A stretch of 39,037 bases of DNA from Escherichia phage pO2. The notes beneath the pieces were generated by a model, which was not told where the DNA came from, made no database searches, and worked only from the letters and a program-made list of their open reading frames with translations. The stretch's first letter is position 1. Each line of letters begins with the position of its first letter. This document shows, piece by piece, positions 1 to 38,903 of the stretch. The stretch lies in sequence record OR228483.1. One strand, 5' to 3'. A program made the position numbers and the translations under genes.

Positions 1-119
1 TAGTCAATAGGTAGTCTTAAATAATATTGATTAAGCTATCGTCGGCCCCATGGTGTAATAGGATATAGTCTTTGACTAACATGTCTCTGACCTTAAGTCT
101 ATAGCTTTGTGTCTATTAA

Positions 120-237
120 CTGTAGGTCTTTGACTGTAGGATGTGAGTGTCTTATGGTTGATACTGTAGGTTAGTCAGACTGTAGGTTGTAGGACTGTAG
201 GTTGTAGGACTGTAGGTTATAGGACCTATGGTTATAC
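120..237. repeat. Cluster of short CTGTAGG(T) direct repeats, including four tandem 15-bp units (GACTGTAGGTTGTAG-like) at 178..237; analogous in position to the short repeat arrays near T7 genome ends
   Basis: CTGTAGG at 120, 134, 164, 180, 195 and 210; 15-bp period read directly; lies beyond the last gene at the genome right end. Confidence 0.6.
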
Positions 238-455
238 AGATAGAGACTCAGAGACAGACCCATAGTCCCTACCTATCGTCCTGACCTCCAGCCATAGCCT
301 AGACCTATCGTTGACCTAACGTCTTGACCATCGGTACAACCTTATGATAGACTGGGGTAGGGCCTTTGGTCTGTACTTAAAGAGGGCCTATGGGGAGACT
401 TGAGGTTCTTGAACTGTGAGATGTGGTCTCAAACTTTTGGTCCAAAACTCATCGA

Positions 456-497
456 ATACTGTAGGTGGCAGCTACTGTAGGTCAAGGACCGTAGGTC
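456..497. repeat. Second small cluster of CTGTAGG / CCGTAGG repeats
   Basis: CTGTAGG at 459 and 475, CCGTAGG at 489. Confidence 0.45.
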
Positions 498-658
498 AGG
501 CGACACTAGGATAGACCAATAAGTAGGATGACCCTAGGTGAGCTTCTATTAAGGTGTTACCTAAAGTCCTTGACTACAGTAGCTAAGGTCAGTAGAGTGA
601 GTCTTTATCCACGTACTGACCTTAGGTCTTCCGCTCATGAATCGTTACCATGATTGCG

Positions 659-817
659 TTAATTACACTGAGACACCAGAGAACATACGAGAGTCTCGAC
701 CCACCCGACCCACTTACTTCCAGCAGTAACGCCAGCAGCAAGTAGAACAGCAGCAAGAAACCTGTATGTAGCTCGATTGGTCGCCAGAGCTTTAAGTACA
801 GCTTTGGTCTTTGCCAT
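659..817 (-). CDS. Small hydrophobic protein, 52 aa (gp19.5-like position, downstream of terminase)
   Basis: ATG at 817 preceded by AGGAGG; ORF MAKTKAVLKALATNRATYRFLAAVLLAAGVTAGSKW... to TAA at 659..661; below ORF-track size cut-off. Confidence 0.3.
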   Translation of the reverse strand: MAKTKAVLKALATNRATYRFLAAVLLAAGVTAGSKWVGWVETLVCSLVSQCN

Positions 818-997
818 ATGCTACATACCTCCTGTATCTATGGTCGGTGACTATCTGTATTGGAGGGATTATGATTAATATCACCCTCCTTCCATCGGTG
901 CAAGCCTTAGGTAAGAACTCGGAGTCTGCCTCCTAAGGTCTTGCATAAAGTCTGCATATGTATATTCACTACAGTAATACTATAAGTAACCGGGGGT

Positions 998-1020
998 CTT
1001 CCCTATAGTGATAGTTAAGT
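998..1020 (-). promoter_or_regulatory. Phage RNA polymerase promoter (phiOR-like, after terminase gene)
   Basis: Minus-strand read ACTTAACTATCACTATAGGGAAG matches the 11-copy promoter family. Confidence 0.6.
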
Positions 1021-1114
1021 CTAAACTCCTTGTAAAACAGTAGGTTAGACTGGTAGTAACTATAGGTTACTAACTGCTTATTAATTCAGTTTTCGCCTAT
1101 AGTTATTCATTCAG

Positions 1115-2884
1115 CTAGTGGAACGTAACGTAGGACCCTAGCCCCAGCTCGTCGTCCGTATCGTGAGTTACCCGGACCCCATTGTCCCAGAACTCAGTGT
1201 GGATGGACTCGAAGCCTTTCCGTGGGTTCTCCATCTGTTCCTCCAGCCACTCCTCAGTGACTTCACGTTCGCCTTTGTTGGCATCCTTCGCCATAGACTC
1301 AACGAAGAACTGTACACCGATAGCCAGCGCATCAAGTCGGTCATCGTGTGCCAATGCTCCACGTTCACGAGAGATACGTGTCATCTGGTAGAAGAGAGAG
1401 TAGATAGGATTACGAACACCATCCTTATCAGAGGCAGACTGGTAATCTTGGACGATAGCAGCAGCGTTAACGATAAGTCGGTGAGACCCCATGATAGGCT
1501 CCAGAACGTCACAGATGCGGAGTTCCTTCTGACCCTTACTCTTCACTTCAGTTACAGCAGCAGGATGAATACGGGAAGCTACAGGCTTGAATAGCTCAAG
1601 GTACATACCATCACCGAAGTTACCCTCAATGACGTATTCGTTGACCTTCCACTTACGACCAATCTTAGCCAAGGCTTCCAGCGTAGAGTCTTCATAGCCA
1701 CCTCGCATACCGCCAACTTCCATAGCGAAGATGTAGCCGTTTAGCTGGTACAGTACCGCATAACCAGTTTCATCCTTACCACGACCACTAGGGTCAATGA
1801 CTAGAATCTTCTGGGTGTACGAACTGAAGGCAGAACCTACAGTCTGATACGTGTGGTATGAGTCACCCATGAGTCCAACGTTAGGAACGTCCTCACGCTT
1901 GTTCTGAGGGTTAGGAAGCCATTGGTATACCATTGGGCTAGACGATGGGTCCAAGTCGGCTACGATAAGGTCACGGAGCTTCAGAGGGTACTTCTCAGCA
2001 TCGCTCAGGTTAGGGTTAAGCATGAACTGTAGAGCGAAGCCAGCTTTACCATAGGACAGCTCACGTTCCTTCAGGTCCGTATCATCAAATCGTACTTCAT
2101 CGGTCGGACGCCAGTAGAAGGACTCAGGGTCCTCTTCCAGCTCTGCCTGAAGCATCGGTGCCAGACGGTCGCCGTAAGACTGCCAGTCCTTCCTGTCGCG
2201 TGGATAACGAGCAGGCCAGATGGTAGTGGTGTATCCACGGCCTTCCAGCTCACGATACAAGGTCATCTCGTTCTGAGGAGTACCCAGATAGATGATTGTG
2301 CCTCCCGGCTTCAGGATAGCGTCGAACTCTTTCACAAGCTCTGACAGACGGTCTCGTGCAGCCTGAGTCGCTGAGTTGTTCGGAACCTCCACGTCATCGG
2401 CAATCAGGATGTCAGCACGACTACCAGTCAACTGACCAGTGATACCAACGGACTTAACCGAAGGTGAGTGGTCTGGCTTGGCTGGTCCAACGTCGAAGCT
2501 GATAACCGCATCTCGCTGCCCCTGCTTAGGTTTGAGTTCCTTAAGCTGAGGCATGAGGTCGATTATTCGCTTGATGAAGATGGAGTTAGCATCGGCTCGT
2601 TCCTTTGAGGCCGACACAATCATGAACTTCAAGTCCGGGTTATTCCATAACTTCCAGACCACGAAACCACAGGTCAGGAACGACTTTCCAATACCACGGA
2701 ATGCTTGAAGGATGAAGCGTCGATTATCTCCAGCCGCCAGCTTCTTACACATATCTATCTGGCAGCGTGTTGGAACAGGAAGGCTCAGAGCTTTCCATAG
2801 AACGAAGATGAAGAACACGAAGTCATCCCTCATCCTTTGGGTCATTTCTGCCTGTCTTTCAGCAGGTGTTTTCTTATTCGCCAC
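1115..2884 (-). CDS. gp19: Terminase large subunit (DNA maturase B)
   Basis: 589 aa; strong similarity to T7 gp19 ([31 protein letters not shown]); GTG start at 2884 preceded by AAGGAGG. Confidence 0.95.
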
Positions 2885-3308
2885 GCAACCTCCTTATGGT
2901 TTCCTGTAGAGCTTTCTCCTTAAGGTCAGCTTCTTGCGTTATTCGGATAAGACTTTTAGAAGTTTCTGGGTGTAGTTCGACTCTACCATTAGGGAAGCAT
3001 CGACTGTAATCTGGCTCGCTGAGACCTGAGGTCTTGACTTTGACGAGCAGCCGCTTGTTATCGCGGTTAAGGTCATTAATAATCCTATCAGTAGAGCCTT
3101 CCAGCGAGGACATCTTGTCCTGCCACTCCGCTGAGACTTCATCGACTCGTGCTTGGATAGCAGTTCGTTGACTCTCTCGTGCCTCAAGTTTCGTGATGTA
3201 TTCTTCATTTACTTTAGCCTCCCACTTATTGTTAGCGGTGTGGTAGCCACCAGCAAACATCACTGCTGCAAGTAGCCACGGAGCCGCTCTCTTTAAAAAT
3301 TCGAGCAT
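2874..3308 (-). CDS. rz: Rz-like i-spanin
   Basis: 144 aa, N-terminal transmembrane segment then coiled-coil-like region; position after small terminase as T7 gene 18.5; GGGAGG before ATG. Confidence 0.8.
2939..3142 (-). CDS. rz1: Rz1-like o-spanin lipoprotein embedded in rz in another frame
   Basis: Internal ATG at 3142 gives [34 protein letters not shown]: signal peptide plus lipobox-like TSGC; fully nested in rz. Confidence 0.5.
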   Translation of the reverse strand: MKSQRSGRTRCPRWKALLIGLLMTLTAITSGCSSKSRPQVSASQITVDASLMVESNYTQKLLKVLSE

Positions 3309-3367
3309 AGTTGCCCTCCCGGTTTATCAGATTTCACGTAGAGTCGCCTCCACTAGTTAGTGTTAAC

Positions 3368-3405
3368 CATAAAGGCCACTACATACAGTAATGACCTTGA
3401 GTCTA
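3368..3405 (-). promoter_or_regulatory. Conserved hairpin element (candidate RNase III processing site, R18.5-like), copy 1 of 3
   Basis: Shares CATAAAGGCCAC...TGACCTTGAGTCTA with copies at 26053 and 33439; stem pairs with G-U wobbles only in the minus-strand RNA. Confidence 0.45.
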
Positions 3406-3409
3406 ACAC

Positions 3410-3673
3410 TTATTGAACACCATACCCGGTGTCATTATCCTCAGTCGCTGAAAGCACCTTATCGTACTCTGCGTTCAGGGCCTCCATATCAGCCAGCGTC
3501 TTCTCGTCCACGGACACCTTGCTTAACACAAAGTTGTGACGAGCAAGCAGCTTCTCAATGGCGTTGTAAAGCTGGGGTGAACGCTTAGTGTCATCCCGCA
3601 GGTCTTGCAGCATGAGTCGAGCACGTTCAGTATCTAGCATTAAGAGGAACTTCTCTAAGTCCATCTGCGTCAT
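3410..3673 (-). CDS. gp18: Terminase small subunit (DNA maturase A)
   Basis: 87 aa, T7 gp18-like size and position; AAAGGAGG before ATG; start overlaps holin stop (ATGA). Confidence 0.85.
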   Translation of the reverse strand: MTQMDLEKFLLMLDTERARLMLQDLRDDTKRSPQLYNAIEKLLARHNFVLSKVSVDEKTLADMEALNAEYDKVLSATEDNDTGYGVQ

Positions 3674-3864
3674 GTTTTACCACCTCCTTTAATCGTTTTG
3701 TAGACTAGCACACCAATCTGGACAACGGTGTACGCGATAGCTGCAACGTAGAACCATTCGTTTAGTGTAAGTCCGAAGAAGAACCGACTGGCACCATCAG
3801 CCGCAGCGGTCCCGACGATAGGAGAGGCTTTAAGGACCTCATTCTTGAAGTCTAACTCAATCAT
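3670..3864 (-). CDS. gp17.5: Class II holin
   Basis: 64 aa; FFFGLTLNEWFYVAAIAYTVVQIG closely matches T7 gp17.5; GGAGG before ATG. Confidence 0.85.
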   Translation of the reverse strand: MIELDFKNEVLKASPIVGTAAADGASRFFFGLTLNEWFYVAAIAYTVVQIGVLVYKTIKGGGKT

Positions 3865-4022
3865 AAAACCTCCATTGTTAAACGGGTCGTCCTTGACCCA
3901 AAGTTGTTACCCTACGTTGGTTAGCGTGTAGTTAGCCTCTACCTCCACAACCTTCTAACATCTACACCCCACTCCTCACCCTATTCATGGATAACCACCT
4001 CAGCGAATCCATGCGTACATTT

Positions 4023-6053
4023 CTAGCGTCGGATGGCCTGTACCATCAAGTCACCAAGAAGAGTAACACTACCACCTGCACTTAAGTTCTTAATGTACAC
4101 ATTACATAAATTCTCCCCTATTGGCTTGAGAATAATTGAACATGACTTAACATCAAAGGTAGCACCATACACAAGCACATCCCCCTTAGTTGGCTTGTAG
4201 TCACCAGTGAGGGTAATATTACCGGCATTCAGGTCAGCACCTGGTTCAAGCGCAGTGTTAACTGCAAGAGTACCTTTGGCTACAACTCCGTTGTTGCTAC
4301 ACCATCCGACCGTGACTGTTGGAACAAAGACTGTGTTGTCATACTCAATCAAACTGTTACCTAGTGCAGCCAGTGACGCCCCACCCGTAGCACCAGTCCA
4401 CAACTTCAATCTAGTAGTTCCAAGCTTAACTCTAGCATCCCCAGAAGACAGGACTGGGTACATGAATACAGCAGTAGACGTCAGGTCTTCCCCGAAGAAG
4501 ATACCATCAACAGTAACGCGAGAACTTTCATGTGCTCGTAAGAAGTAAGCCTCCCCAGAACTAGCCAGAACTTTGTGGGAATGTAGTGCATATCCGTTAA
4601 GTGTTACTGTTGAGTCCCCATGAATATATATAGAGGCATGTCCATTATGATGAATCTCACAGTTCTCGCTGTACATGCCATTTATTACCATACCTTTACA
4701 GTTGTTAATATCAAAAGCCTGTAGACCTTGTATATCATTACAGCCGTCCATTGCACAATTGTTCATAGTCATGTTGTACACGTTTGCAAAATTGAACGCC
4801 TGATAACAATTAAGTGCGTAGCATGTATCCATTAGGACTGTAGTACCAATATGCTTACGGAAACCTTCCCAGCAATTAATCGCCAATACGTTACGCATGG
4901 TATACTGAAAAGCCCCTGTCACGTCATGAATACCAAAGTACGCACCACGTACTATGATGTTCTCAATGATAAATTGTGAAGGCCATGCTGTCTGCGATGC
5001 ATCACCAATATCAATACCTTTGCGACCACCATAGTTGTCTGGCTTGTTCTCACCATAATCAATGAATAAACCGCCTAAGTATCCACCCATGGAGTATCCA
5101 GAGTTAACGTCATACTTAAAAGCTGCTTCATTGTGAGAGATTGCTAGGATTGTACCAAGACTTGGTGATGGAGATATTCCCCCACCTTTAATAACTTGGT
5201 TCTTAAAGTACAAAGTCTCTTTAATGATGTATATACCAACGGGGATATATAGATTCTTTCCTGTTGCTAGTGCTGCCTTGAAAGCCTCTGTATCATCCGC
5301 AGAACCATCACCTTTAGCACCCCATCCGCGAACATCACCCTCATCTCGCCAGCGTGCCATCTGTAATTCTGGGTAGAGTATTGCCCCTTCCGGGTTTGAA
5401 ATCTGACTTCTTAAAGCAGCATCACCAACACTAACCCACGCACCTAATCCAATCCCACCGGAAGTTTCAGGAGTTGAACCAGCAGGAACGTTCTTTGGAA
5501 GCGTACCATCCCAGCGGTAATAATCACCATCCTCTTCCCATAGCAGGACCTCGCTCCATGTTGTAACGTTGTAGCCTTTCTCGAAGGAGCGACGGGTAAT
5601 ATAACCAATTAGACCAGCCTCCCTGATACTCTCAGCGATTCGTCGTGCTTCGTCCTCGCTATCCTTAGCGTTGCCAGCAGAGCTACCAGCAGCATCGGCA
5701 TATTCCTTCGCTAAGTCAACCGTTTGGTCTCTACCTTCTTCTGCAATATGGATAGCCTGAAGCTCTGAATTGGTCAGGTCACTAGCTGTCAACACTGAGC
5801 CATTCCTGAAGTCTACCACTAAGTCAGTTCCAGTCTGACGGTGAATACGAACGATGTCGAAACCTGATTGGTCAACCAACATCTCAATCATCGTTGGATT
5901 AAGGAATCGGTAATCTCGACCAACTTCCAGTACACGGTTCAGGGTAAGGTTAGAGCTATTCACCAGCGTAACAACAACAAACGTTCTGGCTAGGTAGTCG
6001 AACTCAATCCTGTACTGAGTGTTTCCTGAAGGGAATTGTGTAATCGTGGACAT
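4023..6053 (-). CDS. gp17: Tail fiber / tailspike: T7 gp17-like N-terminal adaptor domain fused to a parallel beta-helix (pectate-lyase-type) domain, probable polysaccharide depolymerase
   Basis: N-terminal ~120 aa resemble T7 gp17 (FDYLARTFVVVTL, DYRF); downstream GWGAKGDGSADDTEAFKAAL motif and repeated N/G/C-rich beta-helix-like segments; AAAGGAGG before ATG. Confidence 0.85.
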   Translation of the reverse strand: MSTITQFPSGNTQYRIEFDYLARTFVVVTLVNSSNLTLNRVLEVGRDYRFLNPTMIEMLVDQSGFDIVRIHRQTGTDLVVDFRNGSVLTASDLTNSELQAIHIAEEGRDQTVDLAKEYADAAGSSAGNAKDSEDEARRIAESIREAGLIGYITRRSFEKGYNVTTWSEVLLWEEDGDYYRWDGTLPKNVPAGSTPETSGGIGLGAWVSVGDAALRSQISNPEGAILYPELQMARWRDEGDVRGWGAKGDGSADDTEAFKAALATGKNLYIPVGIYIIKETLYFKNQVIKGGGISPSPSLGTILAISHNEAAFKYDVNSGYSMGGYLGGLFIDYGENKPDNYGGRKGIDIGDASQTAWPSQFIIENIIVRGAYFGIHDVTGAFQYTMRNVLAINCWEGFRKHIGTTVLMDTCYALNCYQAFNFANVYNMTMNNCAMDGCNDIQGLQAFDINNCKGMVINGMYSENCEIHHNGHASIYIHGDSTVTLNGYALHSHKVLASSGEAYFLRAHESSRVTVDGIFFGEDLTSTAVFMYPVLSSGDARVKLGTTRLKLWTGATGGASLAALGNSLIEYDNTVFVPTVTVGWCSNNGVVAKGTLAVNTALEPGADLNAGNITLTGDYKPTKGDVLVYGATFDVKSCSIILKPIGENLCNVYIKNLSAGGSVTLLGDLMVQAIRR

Positions 6054-6099
6054 TATGCCTCCTTTGTGATTTAAATGGAGACCTATGGTAGCGCCTCCA

Positions 6100-6122
6100 G
6101 TTTCCTATAGTGATAGTTTAGT
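6100..6122 (-). promoter_or_regulatory. Phage RNA polymerase promoter (phi17-like)
   Basis: + strand CCTATAGTGATAGTTTAG; overlaps gp16 stop codon. Confidence 0.65.
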
Positions 6123-9100
6123 CCTTGATGTGGATACCTTGCTCCTCAAACATTCCAAGCAACAGCTTCTGGGTAATGGGGTCGTTCGGAACCAGTTCAC
6201 GGAACGTATTATACATCCCGGTCATGTAGTCACGCTCGTTGACACGAGTATCAGCCTTGAGGTAGCCAGCCAAGTTATAAGCAGAAACGCCAACGTTAGC
6301 AGCATATCCGAAAGCTGGAACCTGCTCCAAGAAGTTACCAACAACATTCATCACAGGGTCACTTGTAGCTGCACCAAACGTGATGGCACGTTCAGGCTTC
6401 TCTGTAGGCGAACGAGGTAGGATAGACGAACGGAGCATCTTAGTGTCCTCATACCCAGCGATGCCACCTAGAATGTTAGCTACCCCAAGTGGTCCACCCA
6501 GATGTGAACTACGGGACAGGGCCGCATAGGCAATCATCGTTGGGTCCAGAGCTTGCTTGAGATAATCTCGGTCTCGACCGTCCTGCATAGCGTAAGCCTT
6601 GACGTGCGCCTGAGCCATGTAGTAGATACCAGCCAGACCCATAGACATCACAGTAGACAGTGCAGCGTCCATCGCTCGGTTGTTCTTCGTGGCGTTATAG
6701 AATGTTCGCATGGTTCGACCATTGATGGACTTGATGACGAAGTTCTTAAACTGAAGGACAGTCTTAGCGAGAGGACCATAAGCCTTGGCGTCCATGTTGG
6801 ACAGCTTATGAGGACGGAGTAACGTTTCGTCAGCGATGGTATCACCCATACGCCATAGGTCCATAGCCCTTGGGTCCTGACTGAACGCCTTCTTATCCTT
6901 GATGGTGTACTTCCCGTCTGGACCACGAGTCACTGACTCACGGATGAGGGACTTAATGCCCTTCCACTGCTCGTCAGAGATACCAGCGGTCTTAAGCCAG
7001 CGGTCATCGAACTTACGCTTACTACCAGTCAGGCTATGCTCCACGATGTCAGACAGGAAGCCTTGACGTCCAGCATCTAACAGGTAGTTGGTCGTACCGT
7101 TGAGGACTTTAGTGAACGGAGAGCGTACTGCAAGTTCACCAGTGTAATACTTGACAGTTCCCAGAGCTGTAGCTGCCCCGCGACCTAGGTCACTGTAAGA
7201 CCGCAGACGGTCAATGACATCCTGTTTAGACGGACGGATTGAGTCATCCAGTTCCTTACCGAAGATAACATTGTGCAGGTCCTTAATCTCTGAGGCCCCA
7301 ACCTTCTTGTTACGGAAGGCTAGGTCACGGAAAATTGGGACTCCATGCAGCATTGCACGAACGTTGCCACGAGCCAGCATACCACCAATCTCCGTTAAGT
7401 TCTGAACACCCATGTAGGCATTCTTAGCGAAGAACGATAGGTCTGTCATTGTGCGCATCACGGTAGCGAAGGCTGCATCATCAGCACCATCACGTCGAGC
7501 ACGACCAGTGAGAATCTTCAGGGTGTCACGTAAGGTAGATACTTCACCTTTCAACTTACCGTCATCCCCAGCCTTGTTCATCATGGTCTCAACCAAGTCC
7601 TTCATGTCCTTCGTGGTCTTTCCTGTACCAGCCATGATAGCAATGTCACCATTGACTCGACGGTTGTAGGCCGGGACAATCTTGTCCATGTCCCACTCAC
7701 GCAGGTTGTTGACACTGAAGGTCTGACCGTTAGGTAGGACGATTGACATATCGCTATCGAACAGGTTACGAGCCTCAAGGAAGCTGTTGTTCTCCAGACC
7801 CACCAGACCATTGATGTTCTCTTCCATTACGGATGAACGCTCGAACTGCTCGGTGTGAGAGATACCATAAGCCTTATCGTTGGCGTACTTATCGACCGCA
7901 GCCGCAAGTCCTTCTGGAGTCAACGTAGGGTCAGCCTCTAAGAGTGCCTCGTCCACACGTTTCTTGACCTCAGGTCGAGACGCATAGCTGGTCAACCATG
8001 ACTTCTTGATGGCCTCCTGTAGTGCCTCTGGACTCCCAAGCTCCTTGATGTACAGCTCCTTCATCTGGTTGCTATACACATGCGGGACGTAGGTTCCCTT
8101 GAAGCGGCTACCCGGAAAGATAGACTGAGCGTCTGGACGACCAAACATCGCCGGGTTCTCCATCATCTCACGCTTGGCGTCAAACTGGTTCTTCAGCAGG
8201 TCATATACTTTCAGTTCTCCCGGAGTCAGTTCAGCCTTCAGGTTCCCACTTCCGTCTTCAATAGCCATAGACACACGCTGGTAGATGTCCTGACGGAATG
8301 CGCCAGAGTCTCGCCAGAATGCTGTCTGGAAGTATGGGTCCTTGAGCGCCTCAGTAACCGCGTCGTCGATGTCGTTGTAGAACCGATGGTCCACAGCACG
8401 AAGTCTCTCAAATACGTCTGACGCAGTGGTCCCGATTTTACCTGAGGCCCCTGACTGCATACCAGTTGGTGAACGCACTAAGTCAGCAGCGACTCCACGA
8501 ATCTCAGGGTTCTCTGACCGAAGCAGCTTCAGGCCAATCTCAGTAAGCCCACCAAGGTTCACACCAGCAGCGGCACGTTCAGGCTCAATCACTTCATCAA
8601 AGACTTGACGTGTCTTAGGGTTCAGAGGGTTCTCACCAATCAGGATTGAACCATCTTCCAGTCGTACACTACCCGGCTCGTTCGGAACGTCAGCGAACTT
8701 AACGCCTTGATGACTAAAGGTCTGCTCACCTTCCTGAATAGGGAGACGAGACAGGTCCTGACCATCAACGTTACGAGCGGTCTCACGAGCTTCCAGACGT
8801 GTAGCTGGGCCAGCAAACTCATTAGTGTTGCGACCTAAGGCTCTGCCTAACCCATCAGCGATAGCAGTCATACCACCACCGAAGAGAGCACCACCAAGGA
8901 TAGCTTCAGCCACATGAGCATCACCACCAGCCACTGAGGTACGGGCCATCTCGGACACACCAGCCAGTGCTCCAGATTGAGCAGCCACGGTGAACATCTT
9001 GTTGACCAGCTTACCGCCTTTACCAACCTGTCCAGCGATAGGAACGTATGTCAGAGGGTCTACACCAGCGCCAATCACACCAGCAGCTAACTGAGCACCA

Positions 9101-26028: not shown

Positions 26029-26052
26029 GGTTAATCCTCCGTTTAGTCTAAT

Positions 26053-26088
26053 CATAAAGGCCACTCGATGTGAATGACCTTGAGTCTA
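26053..26088 (-). promoter_or_regulatory. Conserved hairpin element (candidate RNase III site, R4.7-like), copy 2 of 3
   Basis: CATAAAGGCCAC...TGACCTTGAGTCTA just upstream of the DNA polymerase gene. Confidence 0.45.
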
Positions 26089-26091
26089 GAC

Positions 26092-27971
<1,880 letters not shown>

Positions 27972-33404: not shown

Positions 33405-33438
33405 GGTGTAGCTCCTGATTGAATGAGTTAGGGTTAAT

Positions 33439-33476
33439 CATGAAGGCCACGACTTTGAGTCATGACCTTGAGTCTA
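33439..33476 (-). promoter_or_regulatory. Conserved hairpin element (candidate RNase III site, R1.1-like), copy 3 of 3
   Basis: CATGAAGGCCAC...TGACCTTGAGTCTA; minus-strand RNA forms a 12-bp stem AAGGUCAUGACU / AGUCGUGGCCUU with G-U wobbles. Confidence 0.5.
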
Positions 33477-33497
33477 ATCCTATAGTGATAGTTTAGG
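33475..33497 (-). promoter_or_regulatory. Phage RNA polymerase promoter (phi1.1-like; T7 replication-origin region equivalent)
   Basis: + strand CCTATAGTGATAGTTTAGGTTA. Confidence 0.65.
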
Positions 33498-33801: not shown

Positions 33802-36483
33802 TTAAGCGAATGCAAAGTCTGAAGACAAGATGTCCTCGATATTCAGTTTACCTTTCTTCGGAAGCTCAGGCAACTTGTCGCGCTGACTCTCGTGAAGCTG
33901 GTATTCGAACTGCTCGTAGAAGTCAAGCAGCACATCGTTGTCGCGGTAGGTCTCTACCATCGTCTCACGGACACCACGGAACAGATACTCAGCGTCAGCC
34001 GGGATGGTCCCGAAGCTATCGTGAATCACTGCGAATGACATCACGCCATACTTGCGGTGCGTGTGGACTACAGTCTTGCGGAGGTGGCTACCATCTTGTG
34101 AGTGGACGAAGTTCGGGCTAATGCCTGACTCCTGCTTGTGCTTGTCCAGCTCTTTCTTCGTACCTCTGTTGACGGTAGGTTGAAGGTTGAATGACCCTAA
34201 GAACATCAGGTTCAGACGAGTGGTATCTTTCTTGCGGTATTCCTGCCAGACCGGGAAACCATCAGGTGTGACCCAGTGTACCGGAAGGCATGGCTTCAGG
34301 ATTTCGCCAGTCTTCTTGTCCTTCACTTCAGCAGCCAGCAGCTTGGCAGCGCCTTGAAGCCACTTCATCGCGTCAACCGCAGCAACTACTGTCACACTCA
34401 CAGCTTCCCAAATCATCTTTGCCATGAAGCGAGACGCTTGGCTTGGCTCGGTGAACATTGCTCCCTTACCGGAGTCAATCGCTGGCATCACGGTGTCTTC
34501 GAACACTTGGTCGGCGAACCCATACTCTTTCGACCCGTAGGCCAGAGTCATGACCGAGCGCTTAGTGACCGAGCGAGACATACCGAATTGCAGCCACTGA
34601 CGGGCCAGCTCTCGTGTCCCCAGCTTGATACGTTCGGTAATCTCACCAGTTTTCTTATCCTCGTGAGTGACCATCTCGTTGTCAGTACCGTTAATCAGCA
34701 GGACTTTAAGCTCCTCCTCAATGCGGTCAGACACAATGCGGTAGATGTCTTGCACCTTACCGGATGGCGTCAGGTTTACTGCATGTCCACCGATGTGGTC
34801 ACGAAGCATCGCGCTGAAGTGCTGAATACCAGAGCATGACCCATCGAACGCTATCGGCAGCGAGCAGGAGTAAGACAGGCCGTGGTGCATTACGCCAGCA
34901 TACTCGAAGCAGAACGCGAGGAAACAGAACGGAGAGTCTAACTTGCCCCACCACTCAATACTATCCATCGGTGCCTTAGCAGCAGCCATGATGTTTTCGT
35001 GGTTGTCTTCCACCCACTTGATGCGCTCATCGAAGGTGACTTTATCGACACCCGCACAGTTTGCACCGTGGACCTTCAGCCATTTGAAACCGTCAGCACC
35101 AATAGGCTTGCCGACTGCCAGAGTCAGGAGACCCTTCTGCATGTCGTTACCCTGAGGGTTGAACATCGGGACAGCGTAGACACGACCTCGCCAATCCATG
35201 TTGTACGGGAACCAGATGGCCTTGAACTGAGAGAACTTGTTTGCTTGGTTAACGATAAAGCTCAGTGATAATCTGCGTGACTGTCTGGCCTTCTCGCGGC
35301 GATAGATACCAGCAGCAGCCTTCTTCCATGCCTTGAGTTCCTCCTCGGTCTCACCAGCATAGTCCTCAGGCTTCAGCGGTTCCATCTGAGGGATGTCATC
35401 AATAGGCGTGTTGTTCAGCTTCTCGACCATGTTCACCACGTCCAGAACCTTCTTGTTAACTTTCCAAGGTGTATTCTGAATGATGTTCACAGCGTCATAG
35501 ACTTCAGGCATGTATACGTCTTCATAACGTGCTACCGCAGACTTAGACCCTAAGCGAATCAATGGTAACGGTCTGCGACCTTTGGCCCAGTACCCACCAC
35601 CTACGACACCAGTCCACGGCTTAGGTGGAACGACGCAAGGCTGGTAGACTGGAGCGATACCCGCAAGGCTGAATCCTCGTTGTGCCATCTTCTTGACCCA
35701 GAAGTCTGACAGGTGGACCATCTCTACGTCAGCCGCTGCATTACCAGCACCGTACCGCTTAAGCTCGACCAGTTGTGTTGACTGGATGACAATCTCGAGC
35801 ATCTTGATGCCAACGTGGACAGCCTCTGTAGGACTCCAAGTCCCCCATGCATCTTCCAGTTGGCCTTGCTCCAGCATGGACGCCTCGACCGCTTGCATGT
35901 AGGCTTTCTTGTAGGATGCCCCAGCTCGCTTGTTCAGGTTCTCAGCTATCGCCTTCTTGAAGTGCTCCTTCTCTTTGTCACGGATGCGACCGAAGCGGAT
36001 TTCGTCCTCAAGTGTGCGACCTATCGCGGAGGCCATCGGTGTAATCGGTATCCCTTCAGGCTTGACCAGCTTGGAGAGTATGACCTTCAGTATGATAACC
36101 GCAGCGGACTCACAGGAGATGCGCATAGAGCGGTCCTTTACGGCCTTCTCTTCAGTGCTCAACATGGTGAACGCTACGCTAGGACGCGAGGTTGACAGCT
36201 TCCCGTCTGGGCCTTCATGCCACTCCTTGACGGCTTGCGCAATCTTAGGGACCAGAGTCTGCATCAAAGGCTTGGCGACCTGATTGTCTGCCAGTTCCCC
36301 GCGCTCAGTCTGTCGCTCAAGGTTCTTGATGAAACGTCGCTCGCCTTCTGTATATGCCTCATGCTCAAGCTGAAGCTGTTTGACTGCAAGGTCTTGCCCG
36401 TAGTGGTCAGCCAGCAGGTTAAACGGCTCAATGGCGTTCGACACATCAGAGAAGTCGTGTTTGTCAATAGAGATGACGCTCAT
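33802..36483 (-). CDS. gp1: Single-subunit DNA-directed RNA polymerase
   Basis: 893 aa; long identical blocks to T7/T3 RNA polymerase (PCVVPPKPWTG, FPYNMDWRGRVYA, AFDGSCSGIQHFSAM, HDSFGT, C-terminal FAFA). Confidence 0.98.
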   Translation of the reverse strand: MSVISIDKHDFSDVSNAIEPFNLLADHYGQDLAVKQLQLEHEAYTEGERRFIKNLERQTERGELADNQVAKPLMQTLVPKIAQAVKEWHEGPDGKLSTSRPSVAFTMLSTEEKAVKDRSMRISCESAAVIILKVILSKLVKPEGIPITPMASAIGRTLEDEIRFGRIRDKEKEHFKKAIAENLNKRAGASYKKAYMQAVEASMLEQGQLEDAWGTWSPTEAVHVGIKMLEIVIQSTQLVELKRYGAGNAAADVEMVHLSDFWVKKMAQRGFSLAGIAPVYQPCVVPPKPWTGVVGGGYWAKGRRPLPLIRLGSKSAVARYEDVYMPEVYDAVNIIQNTPWKVNKKVLDVVNMVEKLNNTPIDDIPQMEPLKPEDYAGETEEELKAWKKAAAGIYRREKARQSRRLSLSFIVNQANKFSQFKAIWFPYNMDWRGRVYAVPMFNPQGNDMQKGLLTLAVGKPIGADGFKWLKVHGANCAGVDKVTFDERIKWVEDNHENIMAAAKAPMDSIEWWGKLDSPFCFLAFCFEYAGVMHHGLSYSCSLPIAFDGSCSGIQHFSAMLRDHIGGHAVNLTPSGKVQDIYRIVSDRIEEELKVLLINGTDNEMVTHEDKKTGEITERIKLGTRELARQWLQFGMSRSVTKRSVMTLAYGSKEYGFADQVFEDTVMPAIDSGKGAMFTEPSQASRFMAKMIWEAVSVTVVAAVDAMKWLQGAAKLLAAEVKDKKTGEILKPCLPVHWVTPDGFPVWQEYRKKDTTRLNLMFLGSFNLQPTVNRGTKKELDKHKQESGISPNFVHSQDGSHLRKTVVHTHRKYGVMSFAVIHDSFGTIPADAEYLFRGVRETMVETYRDNDVLLDFYEQFEYQLHESQRDKLPELPKKGKLNIEDILSSDFAFA

Positions 36484-36503
36484 ACTTAAAGTCCTTGTTA
36501 TTA

Positions 36504-36544
36504 GTCTTTCACTTAGAGTCTCTTTGGTCTTTCACTTGGAGTCT
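36504..36544 (-). repeat. Two 18-bp direct repeats (GTCTTTCACTT[A/G]GAGTCT) in the RNA polymerase gene leader
   Basis: Units at 36504..36521 and 36527..36544, 17/18 identical. Confidence 0.6.
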
Positions 36545-36552
36545 TAGACCTT

Positions 36553-36575
36553 GAGTCCTATAGTGATAGTTTAGT
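36553..36575 (-). promoter_or_regulatory. Phage RNA polymerase promoter directly upstream of the RNA polymerase gene
   Basis: + strand GTCCTATAGTGATAGTTTAGTC, full match to the promoter family. Confidence 0.6.
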
Positions 36576-36580
36576 CATAA

Positions 36581-36907
36581 TTACTTGCATATCAATGGGT
36601 TAGCGTGAAGATGACTGAAGTCACCATGAGTCGTGTGCTTGATGGTTGACCGTTGGTCTATCGCCTTCCAGCCTGAGACCAGAAGTTTACCATCGTCTGT
36701 GATTGGTCGTCCACCATACGCCAGACACATCAGCTCGGACTTATGGCCCTCGGCCCGGAGTCTTGCTTGCAGAACCCGGTCGCGCTCCTGCTGTTGACGT
36801 GCGGTGTGACTTGACGTTCCGTGACGATACCCTGTAGCCAGTAGGCTTAACATGTTCATTTCTGCGTCCATAGAGTGTACCAGATTAATCCCGTATGATT
36901 TGTTCAT
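36581..36907 (-). CDS. Hypothetical early protein, 108 aa
   Basis: ATG at 36907 overlaps upstream stop (TAATG); no motif recognised. Confidence 0.5.
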   Translation of the reverse strand: MNKSYGINLVHSMDAEMNMLSLLATGYRHGTSSHTARQQQERDRVLQARLRAEGHKSELMCLAYGGRPITDDGKLLVSGWKAIDQRSTIKHTTHGDFSHLHANPLICK

Positions 36908-37104
36908 TACAGTTTGCTCCCAAGTGTTGCTATATCCCAGACGTTCGCTAAATTGCGCAGGAATCGTCCGTTAGGTTGACGTACAGTCCAGCGGACCATA
37001 CGTACATAGTTGAATTTATAGACTTTACGCGCTTTGTTGATGTCTCTCATCAGCATGTAGGCGATAAGTCCATAGCCTATGGCTATCAATAGTTCGATAC
37101 TCAT
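36907..37104 (-). CDS. Small early membrane protein, 65 aa
   Basis: N-terminal hydrophobic segment LLIAIGYGLIAYMLM, then basic tail. Confidence 0.5.
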   Translation of the reverse strand: MSIELLIAIGYGLIAYMLMRDINKARKVYKFNYVRMVRWTVRQPNGRFLRNLANVWDIATLGSKL

Positions 37105-37190
37105 AGTGATTTCCGTTTAATACAGTCGTATAACCCATAGCCTATCATCCAGACAACTGGCGCTAGGCAGACCCAATATCCCAAACTCAT
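37101..37190 (-). CDS. Small hydrophobic peptide, 29 aa
   Basis: Hand-found: ATG 37190 preceded by GGAG; MSLGYWVCLAPVVWMIGYGLYDCIKRKSL; stop overlaps next start (ATGA). Confidence 0.3.
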   Translation of the reverse strand: MSLGYWVCLAPVVWMIGYGLYDCIKRKSL

Positions 37191-37264
37191 AGTTAACTCC
37201 TATCAATTTAAGTGATAATCTTCGAGGCCACCTATCAGTCGATGACCTCTCGTCTATCACTCTC

Positions 37265-37636
37265 CTACACTTCCACCGCTACGGTAGTCATCTTGGTCAC
37301 AGTAAGGCCACCAGCAAGCTCGACCGCATAGCGTATCGCCTCGTCTTTGGACCTGAAATCTTTTCCAGCAAGGTGGTAAATATCACCGTTTATTACTTTG
37401 GTCGGCTTGCGGCTGACTGCTATGGCGTTGCTAAGGGAAAGCTCACCCTTCAACCACTGAGAGTGCCAGCGGCATACGCTCTTAGGAGATACGTTGAAGT
37501 CACTGGCCACCTTCGCAAGCACAGAGTTAAGTCTAGAAGAGCTGCATTGAGGCTGGCGCACCAAGTCGTATGCCTTTGCTACTCGGATTTTAAACTCGAC
37601 CGTGTAGCTGTTGCGGGCTGTCGTAGTTGTGTTCAT
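37265..37636 (-). CDS. Early helix-turn-helix (HTH) DNA-binding protein, 123 aa; HTH resembles the IS3-family OrfA / transposase_8 type
   Basis: YTVEFKIRVAKAY...LNSVLAKVASDFNVSPKSVCRWHSQW pattern; AAGGA before ATG; sits where T7 has gene 0.7. Confidence 0.6.
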   Translation of the reverse strand: MNTTTTARNSYTVEFKIRVAKAYDLVRQPQCSSSRLNSVLAKVASDFNVSPKSVCRWHSQWLKGELSLSNAIAVSRKPTKVINGDIYHLAGKDFRSKDEAIRYAVELAGGLTVTKMTTVAVEV

Positions 37637-37666
37637 GAGTGTATCCTTTTGTTAATTAATTAAATA

Positions 37667-37715
37667 AGTGACAATCAGTCAGGCCCCTCAGTCAAAGGGC
37701 CTGTAGTCTATCACT
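37667..37715 (-). promoter_or_regulatory. Early-region conserved hairpin element (candidate RNase III site), copy 1 of 3
   Basis: AGTGACAATCAGTCAGG ... CCTGTAGTCTATCACT with inner perfect hairpin GGCCC-N10-GGGCC. Confidence 0.4.
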
Positions 37716-37860
37716 CAGCGTGTAAACTATCGTGTATGCGCTTGCGTCTCCTGTAGACCACTTTCAAGAGACGCATGGCCTCCTCGTGGTTTAACCGCCC
37801 GGTTTTGACCAAAATCCTGGCGTTGGTGACGTGGTGCTGGCAGAGACCATAAGTTACCAT
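37711..37860 (-). CDS. Small basic protein, 49 aa, translationally coupled to the Ocr-like gene
   Basis: Hand-found: ATG 37860 overlaps Ocr stop (TGATG); [49 protein letters not shown]. Confidence 0.3.
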   Translation of the reverse strand: MVTYGLCQHHVTNARILVKTGRLNHEEAMRLLKVVYRRRKRIHDSLHAE

Positions 37861-38363
37861 CACTCGCAATCCTCAGCAGCAGGGTCAAACACTACGTTAT
37901 CGTTGATGTCTTCCACCTTCAGGTGGCGACCTATCGCATAGAAGTCTTTTGCACATGCAGTAGCGACCTCAAGAGCTACAGCTTGCACAATTATTTCGCC
38001 TGTTTTAGCGTCAACTACCCAATATTCATCCTCTTCGTCTGCCTCTTCATCCTCAAACCAGACTACATCCAAGCTATTAGACACATCGTTATAAAGCGCC
38101 TCATAGATGCGAGCTTGTAGGATACGCGTTACGTCCTTGGTTTCAGGCATCAGCCCAGAGTCTTCGAACTCGTGGTCTATACCATCAGCAGCCATCACCG
38201 TGAAAATCTCGTGGTAATAGTTCGGGACCTGACCGTCTACGACCTCATGCAGCGCATCGCTGTAGTCATCGCCTTCAGCTATTTCGTCGTACTGAATACG
38301 CTCATTGAACATCTCAACGGTTGCAGCCAGCAGCTCATAGTATGCGTTAGCATTACGTTCCAT
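37860..38363 (-). CDS. ocr: Ocr-like anti-restriction (DNA mimic) protein with about 50-aa C-terminal extension
   Basis: Residues ~15-115 match T7 Ocr ([43 protein letters not shown], acidic tract); 167 aa versus 117 in T7; GAGGA before ATG. Confidence 0.85.
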
Positions 38364-38384
38364 AGTTATATCCTCTCAGTTGTT

Positions 38385-38434
38385 AGTGACTATCAGTCAG
38401 GCCGCTATGAGTTAACGACCTGTAGTTAATCACT
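38385..38434 (-). promoter_or_regulatory. Early-region conserved hairpin element, copy 2 of 3
   Basis: AGTGACTATCAGTCAGG ... CCTGTAGTTAATCACT. Confidence 0.4.
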
Positions 38435-38435
38435 C

Positions 38436-38690
38436 TCAGTTAGCGAAATAAGGAGCTGAGACGCCCGCTGTAGGACTCACGGCTATCTGCGAGTCTATCA
38501 GGTAGGTCTCGTTGTCTATACGCACAGTATCTACGCTGTAGTTGCTGAACGGCTTGCTTGAGACCTTGCGCACTACCACACGGTGACGCGCTCCTGTCAT
38601 CTCTTTAAGCTGAATCCACGCATAACCTTTAGTGTTCACGAATACGTCATTGCGATTAGTGATTGTGCTTAAGTGTTTCATAGTGTCCAT
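38436..38690 (-). CDS. Hypothetical first early protein, 84 aa, upstream of ocr
   Basis: Weak ribosome-binding site; no recognisable motif; position has no T7 counterpart. Confidence 0.45.
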   Translation of the reverse strand: MDTMKHLSTITNRNDVFVNTKGYAWIQLKEMTGARHRVVVRKVSSKPFSNYSVDTVRIDNETYLIDSQIAVSPTAGVSAPYFAN

Positions 38691-38700
38691 CCGTTAAGTT

Positions 38701-38757
38701 AGTGACTATCAGTCAGGGCCTTCAGATGTAGACTCAAAGACCCTGTAGTTAGTCGCT
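38701..38757 (-). promoter_or_regulatory. Early-region conserved hairpin element, copy 3 of 3
   Basis: AGTGACTATCAGTCAGGG ... CCCTGTAGTTAGTCGCT. Confidence 0.4.
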
Positions 38758-38873
38758 ATCGGCGCACATTAAGAGTTTATCCAGATTGTTAAAGAGCATT
38801 CCCTTCAGTCAGAGGACTTCAGGTAGACCATTTCAGTGTTGGTCATCACCGTTGTTTCGTGTTGATGTGGTAC

Positions 38874-38903
38874 ATACTACTTTAAGTCGGTACATCTTGT
38901 CAA
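38874..38903 (-). promoter_or_regulatory. Candidate host sigma70 early promoter (A-promoter analog)
   Basis: Minus-strand read TTGACA, 18-bp spacer, TAGTAT; upstream of all early genes. Confidence 0.3.

Follow-up and report, generated by a model that had tools for sequence, protein, structure and literature searches.

The early mRNA of the phages T7 and T3 is split into stable pieces at hairpins that serve as processing signals for the host RNase III. The T7 sites R0.3, R0.5, R1 and R1.1 (work of Dunn and Studier and, for R1.1, of the Nicholson laboratory) share one architecture: a lower stem is followed by an internal loop with four nucleotides on one side and five on the other, and then by an upper stem some 10 bp long. 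Internal loops of this kind limit cleavage to one bond and leave a protective 3' hairpin (PMC6993053; PMC1540722). According to the latter paper, a G-C or C-G pair at position 2 of the proximal box strongly inhibits binding of RNase III, substitutions at position 3 of this box lowered binding of a minimal substrate, and substitutions beside the scissile bond can uncouple binding from cleavage. For R1.1[WC], an upper-stem product of 28 nt is reported there (PMC1540722).

Our literature searches on RNase III in K1F, Kayfunavirus or phiYeO3-12 returned nothing specific and no experimental report of processing for pO2 or any Kayfunavirus; a search for R0.3/R0.5 led to unrelated papers only. In the GenBank records of K1F no such sites are annotated, and the records that we examined either leave the hairpins out, place spurious 'hypothetical protein' genes over them or call them terminators.

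The window analysed here, a stretch of 39,037 nucleotides (OR228483.1), is the genome of the Escherichia phage pO2, a Kayfunavirus (K1F-like, T7-like), in reverse orientation, and the hairpins are therefore transcribed from the minus strand. We found four hairpins in its early region, E1 to E4, which very probably act as host RNase III processing signals of the family that includes R0.3, R0.5, R1 and R1.1 of T7 and T3. Homology and structure speak for this reading, namely the fold, its strand specificity, covariation, synteny and the similarity to the T7 and T3 sites. The reading agrees with the original prediction, which had compared the elements with T7-type RNase III sites.

Early hairpins of phage pO2

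The original prediction described three intergenic elements with a common motif. This motif is real, since the pattern AGTGACWATCAGTCAGG-N(14-36)-CCTGTAGT has three exact matches on the plus strand (37667-37707, 38385-38426 and 38701-38749), whereas none is expected (100 dinucleotide-preserving shuffles). A repeat search returned the same hairpin families, D1 and D3. The terminal ATCACT that had been assigned to all three copies is found in the first two (E1 and E2), but the third (E3) ends in GTCGCT, from which a C.A mismatch in its lower stem arises. While all three copies exist, a fourth one, E4, had been missed or placed elsewhere (Table 1).

The predicted outer and inner stems with an internal loop between them are present on the minus strand, with z values from -2.7 to -5.4. 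In each of the four hairpins the lower stem comprises 8-10 bp and the upper one 9-10 bp, and the loop between the stems is asymmetric, with 4 nt on the 5' side and 5 nt on the 3' side. It reads ACUA/ACUGA in E1-E3 and ACGA/GAAGA in E4, whose arms are as in the other three hairpins. The RNA of E3 is UAGCGACUA / ACUA / CAGGGUCUUU ... GAAGGCCCUG / ACUGA / UAGUCACUA. All four hairpins start on the stop codon of the preceding gene or a few nucleotides from it, and end 20-40 nt before the next start codon; the start of E2 is itself the stop codon of the upstream gene, and the 5' arm of E1 contains the stop codon of the 0.35-like ORF. As to the genes that the elements were said to separate, ocr was confirmed by a Pfam match, but the assignment of the HTH gene stayed below the threshold (HTH_23, E 0.0036, 17.5 bits against a cutoff of 24.6). 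The latter gene is missing from K1F.

Table 1. Hairpins, early genes and promoter match in the pO2 window. Scores in bits are those of the covariance model; folds are given as MFE (kcal/mol) and z, calculated on the minus strand; predicted RNase III cuts lie between the two positions given.
Feature	Position	Strand	Location or description	Score	Fold (MFE; z)	Predicted cut
Hairpin E3, subtype a	38697..38761	-	upstream of gp0.2-like gene	68.4 bits, E 5e-15	-23.8; -2.7	38711/38710 (ACU^GA)
Hairpin E2, subtype b	38381..38438	-	between gp0.2-like gene and ocr	74.2 bits	-22.9; -3.7	38395/38394
Hairpin E1, subtype c	37663..37719	-	between 0.35-like ORF and HTH-like gene	73.4 bits	-26.9; -5.4	37677/37676
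Hairpin E4, subtype d	37207..37265	-	directly after HTH-like gene; repeats D3, D5	70.2 bits	-24.9; -4.0	37221/37220
T7-type hairpin, R1.1 position	33426..33485	-	directly after phage promoter downstream of gene 1	29.7 bits, E 2.5e-5
T7-type hairpin, R4.7 position	26041..26097	-	primase/helicase–DNA polymerase gap	28.1 bits
T7-type hairpin, R18.5 position	3355..3414	-	gene 18-like/18.5-like ORF gap	34.4 bits
gp0.2-like early gene	38436..38681	-	81 aa from second AUG; family F11; cargo between E3 and E2
ocr	37860..38363	-	DNA-mimic anti-restriction protein, 167 aa	Pfam PF08684, E 5.5e-31
HTH-like early gene	37265..37636	-	123 aa; cargo between E1 and E4
Sigma-70-type promoter match	38874..38903	-	TTGACA-18-TAGTAT; upstream of E3	10/12

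Likeness to the sites of T7 and T3

A covariance model was trained on E1-E4 alone. An unfiltered scan of the whole window with this model gave seven significant matches, all of them on the minus (coding) strand, and the three matches beyond E1-E4 lie at the positions of R1.1, R4.7 and R18.5 of T7. The first of these three reads ACUC / AAGGUC...GGCCUU / CAUGA. For all seven copies the fold of the minus-strand RNA is better than that of the plus strand, by 2.5-13 kcal/mol. To look for an equivalent of R1, we folded the sequence immediately before gene 1 (36485-36590), which gave no significant fold (z -1.0) and no match to the model. pO2 has four hairpins before gene 1 and none that is recognisable directly upstream of it, where T7 has R1.

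Within positions 1-7000 of T7, the five best matches of the model were 1425-1482, 850-904, 5845-5901, 3098-3152 and 6410-6456. The five early RNase III cuts of T7, at what we take to be their coordinates, lie within these five intervals, and the cuts at 890, 1468 and 5887, presumably those of Dunn and Studier (1983), correspond in the model alignment to the U^G of UAU^GA. The T7 records NC_001604 and V01146 list no RNase III features, and the coordinates of the T7 cuts were checked for internal consistency. The 28-nt product of R1.1[WC] agrees with the same bond. The T7 sites were scored at 40.6 bits (R0.5), 39.0 (R0.3), 31.9 (R1.1) and 18.8 (R1). Moreover, in T3 (NC_003298) the model matches all five stem-loops that are annotated 'RNase III recognition site' (R0.3, R0.5, R1, R1.1 and R1.3). 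A search of Rfam with E values up to 10 gave nothing relevant, and no curated family fits the hairpins.

Using the pattern ACTACAGG...CCTGACTGA, we found 59 loci in viral contigs. When 65 loci were searched with the model, matches occurred in T7-like contigs of roughly 39-40 kb only, and we therefore regard the metagenome fragments as chance matches of the pattern.

The early T7 sites are, as we take it, mapped, whereas those of pO2 are predicted from sequence. The two groups have the blocks GAGUGAUAGAC...AGGUC...GGCCU...GAUUAUCACUU in common. The nearest pair is E4 and T7 R0.5, and among E1-E4 it is also E4 whose arms and upper stem come closest to T7 R0.5 and R1. The gene order is similar as well, with one hairpin just upstream of ocr, as for R0.3, and another after the small gene following ocr, as for R0.5. 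The internal loop differs, being ACUA/ACUGA or ACGA/GAAGA in pO2 and ACUC/UAUGA in T7. Similarly, the first upper-stem pair is C-G or G-C in E1-E4 but A-U in T7, with the exception of T7 R1, which resembles the pO2 hairpins in this respect. T7 R1 and T3 R1 share the upper stem CAGG...CCUG.

Hairpins resembling E2 were also found in the Teetrevirus phages phiYe-F10 (1857-1914) and phiCFP-1 (1720-1777) and in Pantoea phage F5M1C. In phiYe-F10 and phiCFP-1 the upper stem is identical to that of E2 (CAGGUCGUUA...UAGCGGCCUG), while the lower stem has changed in a compensatory manner from GUGAUUA/UAGUCAC to GUAAUUA/UAAUUAC. T3-type sites carry the loop ACUC/UAUGA, unlike E1-E4, and the neighbouring genes differ too, a SAM hydrolase and the 0.7 kinase being found in the T3 group and a gp0.2-like and an HTH-like gene in pO2. 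E2 is 95-98% identical across more than 80 phage records, and it is still recognisable in Teetrevirus phages.

Conserved pairing and predicted processing

Conservation in relatives, which the original prediction had named as one of the points on which it could fail, was borne out. Kayfunavirus-like contigs provided 63 distinct copies, in which 94% of the cells are paired and 12 of 19 pairs have changed on both sides; the covariation score is 0.551, compared with 0.05-0.13 with slid partners. A second set of 22 distinct copies (T7, T3, other Teetrevirus and Kayfunavirus) is paired in 96% of the cells, with 11/19 double-changed pairs. In the slid controls of both sets 28-51% of the cells were paired; the pair counts themselves are biased towards structure, as the alignments were fitted to the model. 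Per hairpin, the related copies have some three G.U pairs, which could not form in the complementary strand. In the internal loop, C at position 2 of the 5' side and G at position 4 of the 3' side are invariant (63/63), and A is found at 5' position 1 in 60/63 copies and at 3' position 5 in 62/63.

That the elements contain host promoters had been left open as an alternative, and sigma-70 promoters within the hairpins might start separate early transcripts. A precedent exists in T3, whose annotation places the minor E. coli promoters B and C so that they immediately precede or overlap R0.5 and R1, and in pO2 a 9/12 match (TAGTCA-16-TATAAC, 38392..38365) extends from the 3' arm of E2 to the start of ocr. 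However, the conserved last T is missing from this candidate, a relative (L006) has neither its spacing nor its -10 hexamer intact, and, as TATAAC stops 1 nt short of the ocr AUG, transcription would start within the gene. No sigma-70 candidate is common to the hairpin copies, neither strict nor relaxed scans gave a match in or beside the hairpins above the regional background of 8-9/12, and a promoter scan of the region found four sites where 3.5 were expected. Furthermore, a promoter needs neither base-pair covariation nor a strand-specific RNA fold. We consider a promoter function very unlikely, and it was dropped after the negative scans. The sole strong sigma-70-type match of the early region is the one upstream of E3 (Table 1), and the early transcript that the hairpins would punctuate probably starts from this putative promoter.

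In the record of phage ASO2B (MZ726794), homologues of the hairpins (1060-1095, 1860-1892 and 2298-2333) are labelled 'rho-independent terminator; discovered using WebGeSTer'. Such terminators resemble the hairpins in being intergenic and containing G+C, and directly after E1 there is a U/A-rich stretch, UUAUUUAAUUAAUU. Yet a terminator scan found none at E1-E4, and a run of U after the stem is present in none of the four, the post-stem sequences being CACUAACAACUG, CACUAACUUAAC, CACUUAUUUAAU and CACUUAAAUUGA. The lack of a U-tract and the large internal loop of 9 nt, which breaks the stems, set the hairpins apart from intrinsic terminators, as does the need of the flanking genes for co-transcription: efficient termination ahead of gene 1 would stop expression of the phage RNA polymerase. 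It also speaks against termination that one and the same model matches what we take to be the T7 sites and those T3 stem-loops that are annotated as RNase III recognition sites. The chance that the hairpins are terminators is very small in our view and the idea was abandoned with the negative scan; the label in ASO2B is most likely an artefact of the software.

If the hairpins are RNase III signals, processing may proceed as follows. Host RNA polymerase would transcribe the early genes from the leftmost promoter or promoters as one long minus-strand RNA. In each hairpin, the lower stem of about 9 bp, stacked on the upper stem of about 10 bp, would offer roughly two helical turns for binding of RNase III, and the 4-nt/5-nt loop would leave only one bond open to cleavage, on the 3' side and three nucleotides beyond the upper stem. 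The predicted bond is ACU^GA in E1-E3 and GAA^GA in E4. The upstream mRNA would keep an intact terminal hairpin that may protect it from 3' exonucleases, whereas the downstream mRNA would begin 29-40 nt ahead of the start codon, with a free ribosome-binding site. For ocr, the predicted cut in E2 would give a 31-nt leader with the Shine-Dalgarno sequence GAGAGGA ahead of the AUG. We infer cleavage itself, the exact bond and the stabilising effect by homology.

The positions of the proximal box were placed on the hairpin by inference from PMC1540722 (rules of Pertzev and Nicholson 2006). Position 2, the second upper-stem pair, is A-U in 63/63 and 22/22 copies, and position 1, the third pair, for which the rules ask for a canonical pair, is G-C in 62/63. 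At position 3 the optimum is A-U or U-A, but the first upper-stem pair is C-G in E1-E3 and G-C in E4, and position 4 is A.A in the early subtypes where T7 R1.1 has U.C. Since substitutions at position 3 lowered binding of the minimal substrate, RNase III may cut these sites less rapidly than T7 R1.1. C-G is found at this position in T7 R1 and T3 R1 as well, and the deviation therefore lowers the expected reactivity while being compatible with membership in the family.

These departures of subtypes a-d from T7 R1.1 at positions 3 and 4, together with the reported uncoupling of binding from cleavage by substitutions next to the scissile bond, would also suit a structured RNA that is bound by RNase III, or by a different protein, but stays uncut, or that acts as a passive stabiliser or insulator between cistrons. 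This is improbable in our estimation. The upper stem CAGG...CCUG is shared by T3 R1 and by T7 R1, which we take to be a mapped and cleaved site. The GA that follows the predicted scissile bond is almost invariant (G in 63/63 and A in 62/63 copies), and the 2-nt-overhang geometry is kept as in cleaved sites. The hairpins are therefore best read as RNase III sites of the well-known kind that splits the early mRNA of T7 and T3 into stable pieces.

Hairpins and the exchange of early genes

In the 14 early regions that we compared, each additional accessory gene is accompanied by exactly one additional hairpin. Unrelated cargo genes can fill one and the same slot bounded by hairpins: the families F11 and F20 alternate between hairpins a and b, and Enterobacter phage vB_EclP_26 has a SAM hydrolase and a kinase between subtypes whose neighbours in the window are other genes. 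Two breakpoints of module presence or absence could be aligned, and both fall within hairpin arms that neighbouring hairpins share, one of 11 nt (GAGTGATAGAC) and one of about 20 nt (CCTGACTGATAGTCACTAAC). It is conceivable, and we propose it tentatively, that the hairpins are processing signals and, at the same time, the points at which cassettes of early anti-defence and accessory genes are joined.

The shared arms at the breakpoints and the pairing of one hairpin with each accessory gene might also be taken to mean that the repeats are DNA-level boundaries of recombination between cassettes, with no function in RNA. We regard this as extremely improbable, as homology for recombination requires neither an inverted repeat, nor G.U pairing on one strand, nor compensatory changes, nor the 4/5 loop. 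If the repeats take part in recombination, this is more plausibly a by-product of their presence than their function, which we continue to assign to RNase III processing.

The value of these data lies chiefly in annotation: a small covariance model recovers the hairpins cleanly across T7-, T3- and K1F-like phages. Knowledge of the processing sites would define the real early mRNAs and leaders of K1F-like phages and could aid phage engineering. If the cassette reading is true, the arms would provide the homology for gain, loss and swap of early genes in phages of the T7 group, and a swapped gene would automatically bring its own processing and stabilising signal. Should the rule of one gene and one hairpin be confirmed, it would offer a simple mechanistic view of how T7-like phages reshuffle their fast-evolving anti-defence region.

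Early hairpins of pO2 and their setting

Judged by its sequence, the window is a K1F-like member of the T7 group in reverse-complement orientation, since the largest ORF near the hairpins encodes a T7-type single-subunit RNA polymerase (33802-36483, minus strand) and the last 2.6 kb share 92-95% identity with Escherichia phage K1F and other Kayfunavirus genomes. The early genes span ~39037 to 36483 on the minus strand, and the hairpin RNA is minus-strand RNA. The neighbours named in the original prediction were largely recovered, ocr by a Pfam match and the HTH gene by a sub-threshold match.

The predicted composite motif occurs exactly three times (37667-37707, 38385-38426 and 38701-38749; 0 expected from 100 shuffles), and a repeat search of the window recovers the families of this pattern. 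All three copies share the motif except at its end, where ATCACT is replaced by GTCGCT in the copy at 38701-38749. We found a fourth element, E4, directly after the HTH-like gene, with arms common to the other three and a different internal loop. The RNA of all four copies (E1-E4) folds into the two stems and internal loop that had been claimed. The lower stem measures 8-10 bp and the upper stem 9-10 bp, the internal loop between them has 4 nt on its 5' and 5 nt on its 3' side, and the apical loop has 4-8 nt or more. Minimum free energies are -22.9 to -26.9 kcal/mol (z-scores -2.7 to -5.4), and the opposite strand folds more weakly in every copy, by 2.5-13 kcal/mol.

Immediately past E4 lies a 29-codon ORF (37102-37191, minus strand) for the hydrophobic peptide MSLGYWVCLAPVVWMIGYGLYDCIKRKSL, with a good Shine-Dalgarno sequence (UAGGAG) and a stop codon overlapping the start of the next gene.

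Features of the early region, further hairpins of the window and copies with an apical insertion
Feature	Location	Strand	Remarks
E3, early hairpin, subtype a	38697-38761	-	predicted cut 38711/38710, ACU^GA, by homology
E2, early hairpin, subtype b	38381-38438	-	predicted cut 38395/38394, ACU^GA, by homology
E1, early hairpin, subtype c	37663-37719	-	predicted cut 37677/37676, ACU^GA, by homology
E4, early hairpin, subtype d	37207-37265	-	predicted cut 37221/37220, GAA^GA, by homology
ocr	37860-38363	-	Pfam ocr match, E 5.5e-31
HTH-like gene, 123 aa	37265-37636	-	HTH_23 match, sub-threshold only
T7-type hairpin	33426-33485	-	after gene 1, behind phage promoter; as T7 R1.1
T7-type hairpin	26041-26097	-	between primase/helicase and DNA polymerase genes; as R4.7
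T7-type hairpin	3355-3414	-	between gene 18-like and 18.5-like ORFs; as R18.5
Apical-insertion copy	L007:818-905
Apical-insertion copy	L018:785-871
Apical-insertion copy	L025:727-813
Apical-insertion copy	L083:1633-1720

Relation to the RNase III sites of T7 and T3

The five T7 early RNase III site regions were folded and then aligned with the window elements, which they resemble in sequence and in predicted shape. T7 R0.5 (5' to 3') reads GAGUGAUAG ACUC AAGGUCGCUC...GAGUGGCCUU UAUGA UUAUCACUU and E4 reads GAGUGAUAG ACGA GAGGUCAUC...GGUGGCCUC GAAGA UUAUCACUU, so that the outer arms are identical, whereas the internal loops differ. A covariance model built from the four window hairpins alone gave its five best matches in the first 7 kb of T7 at 1425-1482, 850-904, 5845-5901, 3098-3152 and 6410-6456, which contain R0.5, R0.3, R1.1, R1 and R1.3, respectively. 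In the T3 RefSeq record, all five stem-loops annotated as 'RNase III recognition site' were matched.

The model further identified 68 copies (63 distinct) in K1F, ASO2B and IMG/VR contigs of ~39-40 kb, with pairing kept; lack of conservation in relatives had been named as refuting the prediction. Unrelated metagenome loci from a loose pattern scan gave no model match. The 63-copy alignment was fitted to the model, which biases it towards structure, and has standard pairs in 94% of cells compared with 28-51% with slid partners, changes on both sides in 12 of 19 pairs, and a covariation score of 0.551 compared with 0.05-0.13 in slid controls. A second alignment, biased in the same way, comprises 22 distinct copies from T7, T3, three further Teetrevirus phages, two further Kayfunavirus phages and an unclassified Enterobacter phage; 96% of its cells are paired and 11 pairs show double changes. 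In phiYe-F10 and phiCFP-1, the upper stem of E2 is retained, while the lower stem GUGAUUA/UAGUCAC has become GUAAUUA/UAAUUAC. Despite the model-fitted alignments, the slid-partner controls and the ~3 G.U pairs per hairpin point to selection acting on this strand's RNA.

The T7 and T3 matches, the fold and the covariation together support the reading as RNase III sites of the T7 early type; the observation itself is confirmed, and we regard this interpretation as very probable. The original prediction had left open that the hairpins contain sigma-70 host promoters instead, a reasonable caution given that minor host promoters abut R0.5 and R1 in T3. Nothing comparable was seen here: a strict scan found four sites (3.5 expected) and none within hairpins, while a relaxed scan gave only 8-9/12 matches, as common elsewhere. 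TAGTCA-16-TATAAC, the best candidate, stops 1 nt short of the ocr AUG and is disrupted in the relative L006; the sole good host promoter, TTGACA-18-TAGTAT (38903-38874), lies upstream of E3. In ASO2B (MZ726794), the homologues are labelled rho-independent terminators (1060-1095, 1860-1892 and 2298-2333), a reading that we reject, as the U-run is absent, the stems are interrupted, a terminator scan found none at the hairpins and termination there would prevent expression of gene 1. The hairpins may in addition serve as binding sites that are not cleaved, or as recombination repeats acting purely at the DNA level, but such roles leave the conserved cut-site geometry and the strand-specific pairing unexplained.

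The hairpins belong to a class of RNase III processing signals long known from T7 and T3. The only novelty is that, in the records examined, the Kayfunavirus hairpins are unannotated, mis-annotated or under spurious ORFs. Many other records carry 'hypothetical protein' CDS calls overlapping homologous hairpins, and Providencia phage EPr2 has a 15-aa CDS over one. Such calls and the terminator labels are probably annotation artefacts.

Predicted cleavage and its consequences

Taking the T7 cuts to lie at 1468 (R0.5), 890 (R0.3), 5887 (R1.1), 3138 (R1) and 6448 (R1.3) (Dunn and Studier 1983), the model alignment places the first three on the U/G bond of UAU^GA, which lies three nucleotides beyond the last upper-stem pair, and that of R1 on the equivalent bond, AAU^AG. 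The UAU^GA bond is consistent with the upper stem-loop product of 28 nt from R1.1[WC] (PMC1540722). Internal loops can restrict RNase III to one phosphodiester, and single cleavage leaves 3' hairpins that shield RNA from 3'-5' exonucleases (PMC1540722; summarized in PMC6993053). For the pO2 hairpins we infer cleavage, the exact bond and the stabilising effect: RNase III would cut the early transcript at one predicted bond per hairpin, likely yielding separate early mRNAs, each 3'-protected by a hairpin, and the downstream mRNAs would have leaders of 29-40 nt bearing Shine-Dalgarno sequences.

When the proximal-box numbering of PMC1540722 is mapped on the hairpin, A9:U30 is the second and U12:G27 the fifth upper-stem pair. 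Position 2, where G-C or C-G is strongly inhibitory (PMC1540722), is A-U in 63/63 and 22/22 copies, and position 1 is G-C in 62/63. At position 3 the early subtypes have C-G or G-C, like T7 R1 and T3 R1, whereas R1.1 has A-U; the early sites may hence be somewhat weaker.

Subtypes and hairpin-bounded cassettes

An unfiltered model scan of the window gave seven matches with E < 1e-4, all on the minus strand, with the early hairpins at 68-74 bits and three T7-type hairpins at 28-34 bits. Since one model matches both, the 'second' hairpin family of the original prediction and its 'other' family are two subtypes of one family. By internal loop, the recognisable subtypes are ACUA/ACUGA, ACGA/AAAGA and ACUC/UAUGA.

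The third nucleotides of the 5' and 3' loops (alignment columns 15 and 86) change in concert and without exception: 45 copies have U in both loops, and 18 have G in the 5' and A in the 3' loop. E1-E3 and E4 exemplify the split, and the 3' partner is the base just before the predicted cut. A non-canonical pair at the cleavage site could account for this switch, as could a single ancestral subtype split. In some relatives, subtype a carries an apical insertion of ~25 nt (GUCUACCGCGAGACGGGCUUGACUUGAGCGACU) that lengthens the upper stem, with arms and internal loop unaltered.

T7 and T3 carry R1 before gene 1, whereas no R1-type RNase III hairpin was detectable by model scan and fold at 36485-36560 (minus strand) in the window; the fold of this leader region is not significant (z -1.0). 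The leader contains two tandem ~21-nt repeats, AGACUC(C/U)AAGUGAAAGAC(C/U)AA (36501-36544, minus strand), and half of a T7-type hairpin (ACUCAAGGUC) stands before them. In the window there are 11 copies of the phage-promoter core AACTATCACTATAGG (8 exact, 3 with 1-2 mismatches; ~1 expected), always on the minus strand. One of them (36557-36571) is immediately upstream of the RNA polymerase gene (start 36483), which by position could be transcribed from it.

Hairpins and ORF families were mapped in 14 early regions (the window and loci L001, L003 and L005-L015). With hairpin subtypes as letters, the basic layout is a - ocr - 0.35 - d - 0.37 - 0.38 - gene 1, and each additional gene comes with exactly one extra hairpin. 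Distinct cargo genes occupy the same hairpin-bounded slots: a - F11 - b - ocr (F11 being gp0.2-like) in the window, K1F, ASO2B and L012; a - F20 - b - ocr in L009 and L014; a - F33 - b - F11 - b - ocr in L010; and c - HTH - d in the window, ASO2B, L005 and L013. An Enterobacter phage has SAM hydrolase and kinase genes between hairpin subtypes whose neighbours in the window are other genes.

In K1F, where the HTH gene is missing, the sequence agrees with the window as far as GCUGAGUGAUAGAC of E1 and from there with E4. In L006, where gp0.2 is missing, it agrees with E3 through CCUGACUGAUAGUCACUAAC and from there with the ocr leader downstream of E2. Both indel breakpoints examined fall within arm blocks common to neighbouring hairpins, of 11 nt (GAGTGATAGAC) and ~20 nt (CCTGACTGATAGTCACTAAC), which suggests that the arms may provide recombination homology for cassette gain and loss. 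Early-region deletions in T7 are reported to arise between short repeats, so this idea is maybe not entirely new. The hairpin-bounded gene cassettes are a moderately interesting side lead.
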